Shown here: positions 23,444 to 49,900 of the stretch, piece after piece
Layout of the letters: every line of letters begins with the position of its first letter
How positions within the stretch are numbered: the stretch's first letter is position 1
Origin: Candidatus Bilamarchaeaceae archaeon
Lineage (GTDB): Archaea > Micrarchaeota > Micrarchaeia > Anstonellales > Bilamarchaeaceae
DNA length: 64,000 nt
Reading direction: 5' to 3'
Assembly (NCBI GenBank): GCA_038870635.1
Contig: JAVZJR010000004.1
Span: 40,406 to 104,405, forward strand
The notes under the pieces: model-generated
Seen by the model: only the letters and a program-made list of their open reading frames with translations
Database searches by the model: none
What the model was told of the DNA's origin: nothing
Made by a program: the position numbers and the translations under genes

Positions 23444-25351
23444 TTATAAGCTAATATAATTATAAATAAACGCAATGGCGTTGCGTACCCATGGTGGTAA
23501 ATCTTCTTTTTGGAGATGCCATTTGGCCAAAGTTTTATTAATATCTTCGATTAGTGAAACAACCATCTTCGCGGTTTTGTTATCTAGGCCCATTTTTTCG
23601 AGCATATAATTTGTTACCTTATCTTCAATTTCTTTTGGAGTGCCAAAAAAGATTTTACATTTAATACTCGTATTGCCTATTTTTATATCGACTTGAGTGC
23701 CCACTCGTTTTGCTATATCTTTCGCATTAGGTTCTTTTATCACGTAACTTAGCCCACCGTTTTGCAATATTTTATTTGCTTCCTCTCGTGTTATTCTACC
23801 TTTTTTAACTAATTCATTAATAACTGTTGCAGTTAAATAATCTGTATTAGTATGGCCAAGTTGATTAATAGTGGTGGGGCCAATCGCATTTAAGGATGGT
23901 TGATAAACACCTTTGCTATTTTGTAGTGTCATTTCACTGAAAGCATTCAATATTCTCTGATCTTCGAACTCTAAAACCACCTTCATTCCATAATGATATT
24001 CTTGGCCGGGTATTGCTTTTTCTAATTTAATGGTTGAGGGCGTTTCTTTTAAATTTTTTACAAACTCGATAATCTTATTTTTATTTTTTGGTGAAAGATT
24101 TTTTATTGAATTATGCAACTCAACATCGTTAATCAATTCTTCAATATTAAATAATTTTTCTTCTTTACCAATAGTATAATATATCTTTCCATTTTTTGCA
24201 AATACTGTAGCTTCTAGTATGGATGCTTTACTACATATTTTTTTTATATCGTAAATGTCAGTAAGATTATATTTTTTGAATATCTCATTAGCGGATTCTT
24301 CTAACGCTTTATTAATTTCTTGTTTAAGGTTGCTACTACCCAGTATTGCAATTTCATCCCCTATTTGTGTTACTCTTACAACATAGCCTTTATCAGAAAG
24401 TTTTTTCATCGCATTGAAATATACTTCAAGTCCAAGGTCGCCTAATTTTCTATCAACGTTGTTTAAAAGCCAGACCATGCTTTTATCGATTATAAAAATT
24501 TTTGTGTTTTTAGTGGCAAGCATTTCAATAACATCTTTGTTAAGGTTTACCAATTCTTCAAAGTTTTTATTAATTTTAGATAGCATTTCAAATATACTTT
24601 CATCTTTGTAGACTATGCTATTTCGAATTTCTGTAAGATTAGCTCTAACATTTTTGGGTATTTTTTGAACAAATTCGTCTATTTCATTAATTATAGTAGA
24701 GGTTATCTTTTTATTTAAAAGTTTTTGTATCGCGTAATTTGAAAGTGTTTTTTTTAGCCATTTAAAGGCAGGGATCGTGGCACCTAAAATTGCAATTGAG
24801 CCTATAATATAAAGGTTTAATTTATTTTCTGCCATCTCCCATTCCAGCCAGGCATTCATCAATGATGTTGGTAATCCAACGAGGGGAAGCGACTCTGTAA
24901 TATTCTTTATTGTTTCTCTCGATATTATTTGTTCTTTTTTATAACCCAAATAATCATACACTAACTCTTTTGCTTGCTCAATAAATTCTAATGGCTTTGT
25001 TGTTGATTGAATTACAAAATTCTTTATTTCTTCTGCACTTTGCCCAGCGCTTTTTTCGTTTAATTCTTTTATTATTTTGTCTAATTGTTCTGAAGCAGTT
25101 TTGAGGTTTTCTTTGGCGCTAATGAGCTGTATTTTATTTCCTGGCTCTTTTTCTAATTCGTTGATTTTACTGTTATAGTAATTTATAGTATTTTTAAGAG
25201 AATATAAGTAATTTATTGCAAGTATATAGGTGTGTAATTTATTGATTGGCTGTGTATGGTTGTCGTTAGTTTTTTTAATTTGTTGTGGCTGAGGAGTTAT
25301 TCCTTCTATACTTTTTATATTTTTTTCTATTTGACCCTTGTTGGTATTCAT
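23444..25351 (-). CDS. Orphan protein with a hydrophobic hairpin and degenerate GGDEF-like domain(s)
   Basis: IFIIDKSMVWLLNNVDRKLGDLGL...RVTQIGDEIAIL follows GGDEF motif spacing; second partial motif INQLGHTNTDYL. Confidence 0.55.
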   Translation of the reverse strand: MNTNKGQIEKNIKSIEGITPQPQQIKKTNDNHTQPINKLHTYILAINYLYSLKNTINYYNSKINELEKEPGNKIQLISAKENLKTASEQLDKIIKELNEKSAGQSAEEIKNFVIQSTTKPLEFIEQAKELVYDYLGYKKEQIISRETIKNITESLPLVGLPTSLMNAWLEWEMAENKLNLYIIGSIAILGATIPAFKWLKKTLSNYAIQKLLNKKITSTIINEIDEFVQKIPKNVRANLTEIRNSIVYKDESIFEMLSKINKNFEELVNLNKDVIEMLATKNTKIFIIDKSMVWLLNNVDRKLGDLGLEVYFNAMKKLSDKGYVVRVTQIGDEIAILGSSNLKQEINKALEESANEIFKKYNLTDIYDIKKICSKASILEATVFAKNGKIYYTIGKEEKLFNIEELINDVELHNSIKNLSPKNKNKIIEFVKNLKETPSTIKLEKAIPGQEYHYGMKVVLEFEDQRILNAFSEMTLQNSKGVYQPSLNAIGPTTINQLGHTNTDYLTATVINELVKKGRITREEANKILQNGGLSYVIKEPNAKDIAKRVGTQVDIKIGNTSIKCKIFFGTPKEIEDKVTNYMLEKMGLDNKTAKMVVSLIEDINKTLAKWHLQKEDLPPWVRNAIAFIYNYISL

Positions 25352-25718: not shown

Positions 25719-26888
25719 TTATCTCTCCTTGGATTTTTTTATTTTTTCTATTTCCTGTGCACCATAACCATCAATAAAATATTTTTCAAAATTATTTTTG
25801 CATTTTTCAGTTAGTGTTGTTAATACTCTTTCTAAACCATCTACTCTATCGCTATAGGGGAGGGGCTCTTCTTTATCATTAAACCAAACATCTTCGAGAC
25901 TTCCTATCATTATTTTTGCTTTTTCGTTTTCATCTTTATAAATTAGCATTTCAAGTGGAGAATCGTGACCTATCCCCTTTTCGTGCATTTTTCGCAAAAT
26001 TACGCCGAGCTCATAAAATATGTCATTAAGAATTTCTTCTTCTAATTCTTTAATCATTTTTGATATCGTTTCACCCTTTTCACTTAATATAGTAAAGTTA
26101 CTTTTTTTAGTGTGTAGAATACTCACTACTTCTTGTGTTGAAAAACCAGCTTCTTTTAGCTTTTCTATTTTATTTATAACAAATGGTTCCCACAGGAGAA
26201 GCCTCTTGATAGAGAACTTTTTTCCGTTTTCCTCCAAGTTGGCCAAGAATCTGAATGTCTCGTTTTCGATTCCAGTAGCGTAGCGTTGATAATTATACGA
26301 TGCGCGATAATTTATTATATTTTGTTTTTTTTCTATTATTTCTTTCATTTGTGCAATCTTTTCATTAGTTAGAGATCCTATACTTGGGGTTTTATAAAAC
26401 TCGTCTAAAAATTTTTCAGATGGGATGGTGTCAAGAAAATTTTTAAAAAATCTGTTATGCTCTCTTGCTAAATTTGAGTTTGGAAAAAAATTAAAACAAC
26501 ATATCGGCTCAACAATTTCTTTAAATGCTATATTACCACCGTTGCTAATATATCGCGCCGTCATCTCCTCTTCATTAATTGTAGTAAAAGCTGATAGTGC
26601 CTTTATCCACAATTTTGTTAAAATAAGATGATGGGCTGGGATAGTTATATTTTTTTCTTCAATTTTTATATAAACTTTACAATCGCTTCTAAAAATTTTT
26701 CCGGCTGTACTTGCTACTTTTAATAATTCTTCTTCACCGACTTTTTTTTCTATATTGCATTTTTTTATTAAATCCTCAAAAATCTCTTTAAACTCATTAT
26801 AGTTTATTATTTTTTTTGGGTATTTAATAATGGGTTTTCTGTTAAAAAGTGCAATTGGGTTATCGTTTTTTTTGAATACACTCAACAC
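25719..26888 (-). CDS. Kinase-like (probably pseudokinase) orphan protein
   Basis: C-terminal ELGVILRKMHEKGIGHD..EMLI...IMIGSLED...FIDGY resembles the Bud32/Kdo/RIO-type C-lobe with degenerate catalytic motifs. Confidence 0.55.
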   Translation of the reverse strand: MLSVFKKNDNPIALFNRKPIIKYPKKIINYNEFKEIFEDLIKKCNIEKKVGEEELLKVASTAGKIFRSDCKVYIKIEEKNITIPAHHLILTKLWIKALSAFTTINEEEMTARYISNGGNIAFKEIVEPICCFNFFPNSNLAREHNRFFKNFLDTIPSEKFLDEFYKTPSIGSLTNEKIAQMKEIIEKKQNIINYRASYNYQRYATGIENETFRFLANLEENGKKFSIKRLLLWEPFVINKIEKLKEAGFSTQEVVSILHTKKSNFTILSEKGETISKMIKELEEEILNDIFYELGVILRKMHEKGIGHDSPLEMLIYKDENEKAKIMIGSLEDVWFNDKEEPLPYSDRVDGLERVLTTLTEKCKNNFEKYFIDGYGAQEIEKIKKSKER

Positions 26889-26940: not shown

Positions 26941-26948
26941 TTTATAAA
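26941..26948 (+). promoter_or_regulatory. TATA box for the rps17 operon leader (may be shared with the divergent gene)
   Basis: TTTATAAA about 26 nt upstream of the first paired base of the structured RNA. Confidence 0.55.
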
Positions 26949-26973
26949 TGTTTCTGTTCAAATAAAAAACTCG

Positions 26974-27113
26974 CCGCATCTATTGATGAGCGAGCGGTGA
27001 TTGACGAACACCCCGCTACATTAGCGGAATTCGTCTTGAGCTCATAAATTGCTCCCTCACTCCTTTAATGGAGCAATTTATCCAAACGGCAAGGGCTTAA
27101 AGCAACGATGCGG
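26974..27113 (+). ncRNA. About 140-nt multi-stem structured RNA / 5' leader of rps17
   Basis: Stems CCGCATC/GATGCGG, ATGAGC/GCTCAT, GACGAA/TTCGTC, CCGCTA/TAGCGG and ATAAATTGCTCC/GGAGCAATTTAT in a GC-richer non-coding gap. Confidence 0.7.
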
Positions 27114-27126
27114 TTAGGTGAATTTA

Positions 27127-27432
27127 ATGGCAGACATGTGCGATGATAAAAAATGCTTTCAACACGGCACGGTTCGTGTTAGAGGGGGCGTTCTACAGGG
27201 AATAGTTGTTAGTACTAAAGGAAAGCGAACTGCAATAATAGAGCAGCGAAGAGCTAAAAAAATACCTAAATATGAAAGATGGGCTAAAGTTCGTTCAAGA
27301 GTACCAGCTCATAACCCCCCATGCATAAATGCACAGGTTGGTGATATTGTTGAAATAGGAGAAACAAGGAGATTGAGTAAAACTAAGGCTTGGACCATAA
27401 CTAAAATCTTAAAAAAAGGTGAGGCAAGATGA
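27127..27432 (+). CDS. rps17: 30S ribosomal protein S17
   Basis: CDDKKCFQHG, KYER, AHNPPCI, ETRRLSKTK. Confidence 0.96.
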   Translation: MADMCDDKKCFQHGTVRVRGGVLQGIVVSTKGKRTAIIEQRRAKKIPKYERWAKVRSRVPAHNPPCINAQVGDIVEIGETRRLSKTKAWTITKILKKGEAR

Positions 27433-29728: not shown

Positions 29729-30112
29729 ATGGTTGATTATCTAGCAGATGCTTTAAATACTATAAAAACACACGAATATGTAGGACAAAAGAGATGCACA
29801 ATAAAAGCAAGTAAGTTGGTCGGTGAAGTGTTGCGTATACTAAAAGAGAGAAAATATCTTAAGGATTTTAAGTTTATTGATGATGGACGTGGCGGATTGT
29901 TTGAAGTAGAGTTGGATGGTAGAATAAATAATTGCGGCGTTATAAAACCTCGTTTTCCAGTAAAAAAGAATGAATGGGCGAAAACAGAAGAACGTTATAT
30001 TCCTGGCGTTGGAATCGGTTTGCTAATAGTTACAACACCGTTCGGTATAATGACTAATGAAGATGCTGAAAATAGAAAAATTGGCGGAAGACTTTTAGCT
30101 TATGTTTATTGA
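29729..30112 (+). CDS. rps8: 30S ribosomal protein S8
   Basis: DYLADAL, DDGRGG, INNCGVIKPRF, GGRLLAYVY. Confidence 0.97.
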   Translation: MVDYLADALNTIKTHEYVGQKRCTIKASKLVGEVLRILKERKYLKDFKFIDDGRGGLFEVELDGRINNCGVIKPRFPVKKNEWAKTEERYIPGVGIGLLIVTTPFGIMTNEDAENRKIGGRLLAYVY

Positions 30113-49362: not shown

Positions 49363-49827
49363 ATGGAACTGAATGAGCGCGGCCTTTCTCTTTTTACTTT
49401 ATTTGAAAGTATAACTAGTGTAATGCCACGTGATTACGCCGAGGCAGAGGAGACTATAATTTTTTTAGTTGATCCTTTTCAGCTTGGTCGCTCTATAGGA
49501 AAAAACGGTGTAAATGTAGATAAACTCAAAACAAAAATAAATAAGCGGGTTTTTGTTGTCGCTGATTCCGACGACCCCTCAACTTTTATAAGAAATTTTT
49601 TTAGTAATCTTAAGATTTTGGCGATTGAAGAAAGGAATGTTATGAATGAGCGCTCTTTTTTAGTTTATTTTGATGAGAAGGAACGTGGTCTCGCCATAGG
49701 CAAAAATGGTGAAAGAATAAAGATATTAAAAGAATTTCTTAAGAAAAAGTTCAATGCCACAGCACATGTTCGCACTCGTCGTGTGTTAGGAGAATCCTCT
49801 TCAGCCGAGGTGGCGGAATCCGGTTAA
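49363..49827 (+). CDS. nusA: Archaeal NusA
   Basis: Two KH motifs (SIGKNG, AIGKNG); position after rpl30e. Confidence 0.93.
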   Translation: MELNERGLSLFTLFESITSVMPRDYAEAEETIIFLVDPFQLGRSIGKNGVNVDKLKTKINKRVFVVADSDDPSTFIRNFFSNLKILAIEERNVMNERSFLVYFDEKERGLAIGKNGERIKILKEFLKKKFNATAHVRTRRVLGESSSAEVAESG

Positions 49828-49900
49828 CGCGTACGCCTGGAGATTCTGCTAGGAAGCGTATCCCCTCACGGGGTTAGGAGTTCAAATCTCCTCCTCGGCG
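49804..49900 (+). tRNA. tRNA-Ser(GGA) with a 12-nt intron at 37/38 (49843-49854); overlaps the 3' end of nusA
   Basis: Acceptor GCCGAGG/CCTCGGC-G; anticodon arm TACGC-CTGGAG|A-GCGTA; long variable arm CCCC/GGGG; T arm AGGAG-TTCAAAT-CTCCT. Confidence 0.93.

Follow-up and report, generated by a model that had tools for sequence, protein, structure and literature searches.

A conserved leader hairpin upstream of rps17 in an archaeal spc-type operon as a candidate S8 feedback site

The spc-type ribosomal protein operon in the analysed stretch of archaeal DNA (64,000 nucleotides, referred to as the window, from a genome of 859 kb) is preceded by a leader containing a 33-nt hairpin, which is very probably a real, uncatalogued leader element found throughout one family of Micrarchaeota. 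The unit that recurs in relatives is this hairpin only (RA[HAC]Y, variable stem, R[A/G]UY); the 140-nt envelope first drawn around it is not the conserved unit. The hairpin resembles the binding site of ribosomal protein S8 in helix 21 of 16S rRNA and, judged from its letters and position, is considered with moderate confidence a candidate operator by which S8 would damp its own operon. Feedback of a ribosomal protein on its own operon is a textbook class of mechanism, and few cis-regulatory RNAs are known in archaea. The features of the locus are the following:

26941-26948, + strand: archaeal TATA box TTTATAAA, assigned from sequence; a TATA-like box stands before the core in most carriers.
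26974-27113, + strand: folded 5′ leader as first outlined, with an outer helix seen only in this genome.
26992-27043, + strand: predicted k-turn 7 bp below the core (C-stem GAGC 26992-95/GCUC 27040-43, bulge GGU 26996-98, G26999.A27039, A27000.G27038).
27003-27035, + strand: conserved core hairpin, 33 nt (lower helix GACGAA/UUCGUC, upper stem CCGCUA/UAGCGG).
27036-43/27093-27100, + strand: alternative 8-bp helix TTGAGCTC/GGGCTTAA, which excludes the C-stem of the k-turn.
27044-27081, + strand: 12-bp hairpin with a 14-nt loop holding CACUC (27058-62), a motif common to other leaders.
27116-27121, + strand: Shine-Dalgarno sequence AGGTGA of rps17, complementary to the 16S 3′ end of the same genome.
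27127-27432, + strand: rps17 (uS17) with ATG at 27127, first gene of the spc-type block.
29729-30112, + strand: rps8 (uS8), seventh gene of the operon, encoding the proposed ligand.

In many archaea rnp1 and SUI1 precede rps17. In the window's genome these two genes are located on a different contig, from which it follows that the operon is split at rps17 and that TTTATAAA is the sole evident promoter. The ORF upstream of the leader (25719-26888, minus strand) is divergent from rps17, and since it points the opposite way rps17 has no other evident promoter; the box at 26941 is likely the promoter of the rps17 operon. General archaeal promoter spacing predicts a transcription start at ~26966-26974 and a leader of ~160 nt. 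The block is arranged in the order S17-L14-L24-S4e-L5-S14-S8-L6-L32e-L19e-L18-S5-L30-L15-SecY and extends to 34978. Accordingly, the description of this locus in the first-pass annotation as a new start of the spc operon held, with rps17 heading a split-off block behind its own TATA box. Two large minus-strand ORFs diverge from the operon, at 25719-26888 (389 aa) and 23444-25351 (635 aa), and no NCBIfam family matched the 389-aa ORF. The leader is spanned by two DNA assemblies, with no change within it. The closest named relatives by S17 are Micrarchaeota records, and the motif is present in two of them (L034, L046). The S8 protein encoded in the window is typical (best match 1I6U, E 3e-40); it retains the arginine corresponding to M. 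jannaschii R124 and carries T-T-P in place of M. jannaschii S-T-T, the roles of the S8 residues being taken from PMC4176348.

The motif was first seen in the rps17 loci of 30 relatives as CGAA-CAC-C-variable stem-G-A-UUCG, and a first model (R1) was trained on 19 copies picked by eye. R1 found one significant copy in the own genome, matches in 27 of 151 genomes across the order and in 24 of 73 family genomes, the latter figure reflecting that searches with such short models miss weak matches. In untrained genomes 12 matches were obtained, ten of them in the family, all directly before rps17 and eight new in sequence; the other two were outside the family, weak and away from rps17. Of the 95 family genomes in which S17 was matched, 94 additionally supplied an rps17 upstream region. 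In the 59 regions that were new, 23 matches were obtained with the model; 20 were in the leader and the other three were chance rows. Among 71 family genomes whose rps17 is free-standing, 64 matched a strict descriptor (63 with a score of at least 10), a count that is partly circular because the descriptor was written after the sequences were seen; so did 4 of 23 loci where rnp1 or SUI1 abuts rps17, all with scores of at most 9.5. Its background in the own genome amounted to 14% of 6356 scanned segments, and to 3.2% at a score of at least 11.

The final set consisted of 67 copies from the 71 free-standing loci, representing 12 genera. Two probable chance matches (G030, G151) were dropped, two copies were moved and five were added by eye, with 7 of the 67 copies placed by eye; the free-standing loci without a copy were those of G019, G023, G030 and G151. 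A displaced copy was sought in 10 operons without the leader and none was found (best E 0.31). In one genome without an rps17 leader (G025) a 14-bp hairpin in the rps14-rps8 gap (L237:7235-7300) covers part of the rps8 Shine-Dalgarno sequence. Beyond the family, no leader site was found in 64 further rps17 loci, of which 51 belong to other families of the class and 13 are named records, some perhaps duplicates. A second model, R2, gave weak matches in 5 of 127 non-family genomes (E 0.009-0.047; chance alone would give ~6), and none of these was next to an spc gene. The class tallies possibly include the unpublished genome G233.

Covariation was scored as both-sided changes in the stems. The 19 training copies contained 52 such changes and the 23 untrained matches, three chance rows included, contained 61; in each case 0 of 500 shuffles reached as high a number, and slid controls gave lower counts. 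These counts ignore kinship, and related genomes are not independent samples. G-U combinations outnumbered A-C combinations in the stems (33 vs 9), which favours the sense strand as the RNA. The lower helix was predicted to be mostly open in 13 of the 67 leaders. A hairpin CGCCU...AGGCG located just after the core in eight leaders (L008, L018, L019, L020, L024, L025, L029, L114) shares bases with the 3′ strand of the lower helix, and in several of these leaders competition between the two is predicted. Moreover, a second core-like hairpin (A-CAC-U ... A-A-U) lies upstream of the main core in L083 (G147) and L142 (G168), forming tandem sites, and G146 has a looser version.

A scan against Rfam 15, one of the checks proposed together with the first-pass annotation, found no family for the leader; the window gave only a tRNA at 49804, the best local E was 7.2, and 20 loci of relatives gave only a tRNA. 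The tRNA at 49804-49900 contains extra bases in the anticodon arm and the variable region and is possibly intron-bearing. The earlier proposal of an undescribed ribosomal leader was thereby borne out: the element is conserved, possesses a secondary structure supported by covariation, is positioned before ribosomal-protein genes behind a promoter and is without a match in Rfam. The comparison of rps17 upstream regions, which had also been proposed, supported the 33-nt core hairpin but not the outer helix, the switch or the k-turn.

The fold of the 140-nt leader in the window was more stable than that of shuffled sequences (MFE -48.4, z -4.29, 1 of 200 shuffles equally stable). Several elements described previously were found in the sequence as described, namely the stems 27003-08/27030-35 and 27013-18/27022-27, the 12-bp hairpin 27044-55/27070-81 and the end of the leader just before the Shine-Dalgarno sequence, where GATGCGG (27107-13) is followed by AGGTGA. 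The stem assigned to 26986-91/27040-45 was rejected: it shares two bases with the 12-bp hairpin, has a probability of 0.0 and costs 5.6 kcal/mol if forced, and the pairing GAGC 26992-95/GCUC 27040-43 is taken instead. The letters of the outer helix CCGCATC 26974-80/GATGCGG 27107-13 are present but were seen in this genome only, and in the full leader the fold with the alternative helix is favoured (-54.4 vs -53.3; P 0.90, compared with 0.11 for the outer helix). The two folds, outer helix plus k-turn stem on the one hand and alternative helix on the other, thus differ by 1.1 kcal/mol, and the inner hairpin 27003-27035 is present in both (P 0.92-0.99). Switching, as suggested earlier, is energetically possible in this genome, but the alternative helix is absent from the folds of six leaders of the same genus. 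Coupling of the core to the Shine-Dalgarno sequence was not seen across the family leaders, and pairing of the 5′ end with the Shine-Dalgarno region is not family-wide.

The opposed GA/GA dinucleotides fit the k-turn consensus, but a k-turn with its C-stem was found in just 3 of 67 copies, those of the window's genome (G000), G001 and G003. A gene of the L7Ae family is present in the window's genome. The CACUC of the 12-bp hairpin belongs to a motif, CAYUC, that occurs outside the core in 39 of 67 leaders vs ~15 in shuffles, and in 7 of 7 leaders of the window's genus. It is located at 27058-27062 in the window and in leaders of genera g1, g15, g19 and g23, often reads RCACUCMA, and in most of the 39 leaders is located 31-38 nt upstream of the core or 21-38 nt downstream of it. 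Leaders of genus g19 (L076, L079, L080, L081, L119, L121) have a 5′ CCCGUAUU segment, followed by a hairpin with a conserved 7-nt loop, GACAUUG/UACAUUG, and then the core.

In the core, the loop CAC (27009-11) lies opposite A27029, next to a C27012.A27028 mismatch. The equivalents in helix 21 are A27008=A640, C27009=641, A27010=A642, C27011=C643, C27012=644, A27028=596, A27029=597 and U27030=U598. The A640-U598 pair, the unpaired positions 641 and A642, and C643 of the S8 site are found in the leaders, the window included. Among the 20 untrained leader matches A640, A642 and C643 were each found in 20 of 20 and U598 in 19 of 20, and according to PMC4176348 A642 is the only conserved base-specific S8 contact. 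In 27-28 of 30 genomes the family 16S helix 21 has the sequence AAGUC/GAUACU, the same as in E. coli 595-599/639-644. In 30 family 16S rRNAs helix 21 was the only widely matching site (25 of 30) when a consensus-fold filter was applied; this filter replaced a loose descriptor without structure filter, which gave many false long-range pairs. The E. coli spc operator (GAAACU ... AAGUC) has the 640 strand first, and the leader form RAHACY ... R(A/G)UY has the same permuted order. Across the 67 copies, position 641 was C in 50, U in 10 and A in 7, position 597 was A in 57, G in 9 and C in 1, and the pair 644-596 was C-G in 62, U-A in 4 and C.A in 1. Position 641 is U in the rRNA and A in the E. 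coli operator, and the four copies in which 644-596 has shifted from C-G to U-A, the rRNA pair, belong to two genera. The variants comprise six copies with GAUAC ... GUC, one with GAAAC ... GUC, G153 with GAAAC ... AAGUC and G015 with AAUAC ... AAGUU. The canonical G597 is distributed over three genera on a weakly resolved S17 tree (a quick version with many open forks), and two of the nine copies have the full AAGU; five of the nine were placed by eye and six come from one sub-clade.

The rRNA S8 sites of the window's genome (G000; L031, nt 594-598/678-683) and of G003 (L085) are off the family consensus, with CCGUC/GAUACC and CAGUC/GAUACC, and are also without the 596-644 pair, like the leader of the window. 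The 16S rRNA of the window's genome (L031, 1573 nt vs a 1478-position model) shows apparent insertions at ~455-510 and 605-645, one of them inside helix 21.

An rRNA mimic bound by S8 or S17 had been put forward earlier. S8 is the best candidate for such a ligand, by way of the inner hairpin, but S17 is without support and the 3′ segments are chance. These had been likened to the h19/h20/h25 region of 16S rRNA, a likeness that amounts to one 11-mer with one mismatch and was equalled by 331 of 500 shuffled leaders; with 2 mismatches, strings like GGGCYUAAAGC and like AACGAUGCGG were each present in 3 of the 67 leaders, among them that of the window. A stray rRNA was ruled out, as the 5S, 16S and 23S genes sit elsewhere in the genome.

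The leaders also depart from the helix-21 site. A597 in 57 of the 67 copies, including the window, removes the G597-C643 pair of the core triple, a pair invariant in the 30 family rRNAs, and the 597/641/643 triple is A/C/C in the majority of copies. For the 597-643-641 base triple, isosteric sets obtained by SELEX are summarised in PMC4176348. The second triple, formed by a bulged 595 and the 596-644 pair, is mostly missing: the bulge is absent in 54 of 67 copies, where the helix is continuous, AAG or AAA forms occur in 4 of 67, and the window has A596.C644. As read from these positions, the leader is not a fully canonical S8 site and would at best work like one.

A different protein of the operon as the ligand, most likely S4e through mimicry of the 16S helix-7 loop (UACC/GAU), is an unlikely alternative, though the strongest of those considered. 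Protein S16 binds helix 7. According to PMC11354259 eS4 replaces bacterial S16; rps4e lies within the operon, and helix 7 of the own 16S rRNA has UACC 111-114 facing GAU 224-226, oriented like the common form of the leader. Against this, the helix-7 loop in 30 family 16S rRNAs is U-R-M-C, with U invariant and A in 13 of 30, whereas in the leader C predominates (50 of 67) and the A is fixed; the rRNA thus keeps the U and varies the A, the reverse of the leader, and this first candidate for mimicry was weakened accordingly. Moreover, the lower closing pair is C-G in helix 7 and A-U in the leader, and the G597 and AAG variants match helix 21, not helix 7. A look-alike in 23S rRNA (1368/1350, 3 of 4 rRNAs) was rejected, being the junction of two hairpins and not an internal loop.

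The S8 operator known from the spc operon of E. coli and other Gammaproteobacteria is located at the rplE start (PDB 1S03; alignment in Fu et al. 2013, PMC3616713). Like that operator, the archaeal hairpin has an asymmetric loop matching helix 21 in permuted orientation relative to the rRNA (A-N-A-C-Y strand first, U598 strand second) and a variable distal stem, and its operon encodes S8. Unlike the E. coli site, which overlaps the rplE start, it lies in an archaeal untranslated region before rps17, four genes ahead of rpl5; it mostly has A597, is without bulged 595 and shows no sequence similarity outside the core, and binding is only predicted. Because the core is located 97 nt before rps17 and not over the rplE start, it falls outside the gammaproteobacterial operator family and at most works alike. 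Compared with the helix-21 site itself (E. coli 595-598/640-644; M. jannaschii complex 1I6U), A640-U598, A642 and C643 are kept, and some copies also share G597 (9 of 67) or U644-A596 (4 of 67), but the leader is circularly permuted, the triple is mostly A/C/C and the 595.(596-644) triple is mostly absent.

Among archaeal ribosomal leaders, PMC7247131 gives L1 and L7Ae as validated and S15-Halobacteria, S15-Methanomicrobia, eL15-Euryarchaeota and L4-Archaeoglobi as predicted. The present element is similar to these in being a structured 5′ leader before ribosomal-protein genes with covariation support, and differs from them in genes, ligands, lineages and structures. Table S1 of the same paper contains an S8 leader for Gammaproteobacteria only, and PMC10931766 calls spc control in other species unknown. 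A literature search, with subscription papers and bioRxiv supplements outside its reach, returned no archaeal S8 leader and no Micrarchaeota leader.

In the proposed mechanism, the operon would be transcribed from the TATA box and the core, whose fold is supported by covariation, would form in the transcript. Surplus S8 would then bind the core hairpin, and initiation at rps17 would be reduced, an effect that may be passed along the operon by translational coupling, in analogy with E. coli; several operon genes overlap or nearly abut. The output step, the weakest part of this scheme, would by the same analogy most likely be a block of translation initiation at rps17. The common A597 form would represent a weakened site, which suits a sensor meant to lose to the rRNA. 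Across the leaders the core sits 19-181 nt before the start codon. When it was forced or forbidden in the 67 leaders, predicted pairing of the Shine-Dalgarno sequence rose by more than 0.2 in none and fell in 2. Pairing of the 5′ end or of the CACUC motif with its own Shine-Dalgarno sequence was no better than with others. A conserved Shine-Dalgarno switch is thus unsupported by the folding of the 67 leaders and by the comparison of own with other pairings.

This lack of predicted Shine-Dalgarno coupling would also suit a conserved cis element with another job, such as mRNA stability, processing, ribosome recruitment or binding of a non-ribosomal factor, in which the S8 likeness is incidental or, in most copies, a decayed relic. 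The departure of the majority form from two features of natural S8 sites and the enrichment of CAYUC, which has no known partner, point the same way. However, the fixed letters are those that S8 reads, and the rarer variants shift towards the canonical S8 site in three genera, and we regard such an element as improbable, marginally more so than S4e as the ligand.

An independent ncRNA, named earlier as an option, is very improbable, also in the form of a box C/D-like guide carrying a k-turn. The separate TATA box, the pairing of the ends, UUGAUGA at 26983-89 and the predicted k-turn in this genome would fit such an RNA, but of the terminal boxes C and D the latter is missing, there being no sense-strand CUGA within 26974-27113; in addition, 3 of 67 copies have the k-turn, pairing of the ends is not family-wide and Rfam gave no match. 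It is unlikely because rps17, next to a divergent upstream ORF, has no evident promoter other than the TATA box at 26941. A DNA-level palindrome or a coding relic of rnp1, in which N-T ... I-P codons can spell AACACC ... GATTCC and of which one high-scoring look-alike inside rnp1 (L045) and weak ones inside rnp1 in abutting loci might be taken as signs, is already disfavoured to the point of being scarcely credible, as the stems covary with an excess of G-U, intact rnp1 lies just upstream of the leader in several carriers and the hairpin spans fall in all three frames (30/24/13).

If S8 does bind the core hairpin, an S8 operator would have evolved independently in a second domain of life, here in a DPANN lineage with small genomes, and the splitting of the operon would be tied to the acquisition of a new regulator. 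The 67 copies would then form a natural series of variants (641/597: C/A, U/G, A/G, A/A, U/A, U/C, plus AAG forms) that probes the needs of S8. More tentatively, and in our view doubtful as a whole, S8 operators may have arisen anew in archaea wherever the spc block gained a promoter before rps17, with the candidate site of this family lacking both the G597-C643 pair and the 595 bulge, which are regarded as essential (CAC opposite A), and the k-turn of the window's sub-clade adding L7Ae as a second input on the same hairpin. Elsewhere in the genome, outside the window, an element of ~75 nt is present in four copies of two near-identical versions (G000:C1:206603 (+), C2:43281 (-), C1:312558 (-) and C4:61 (+)), possibly the end of a mobile element.
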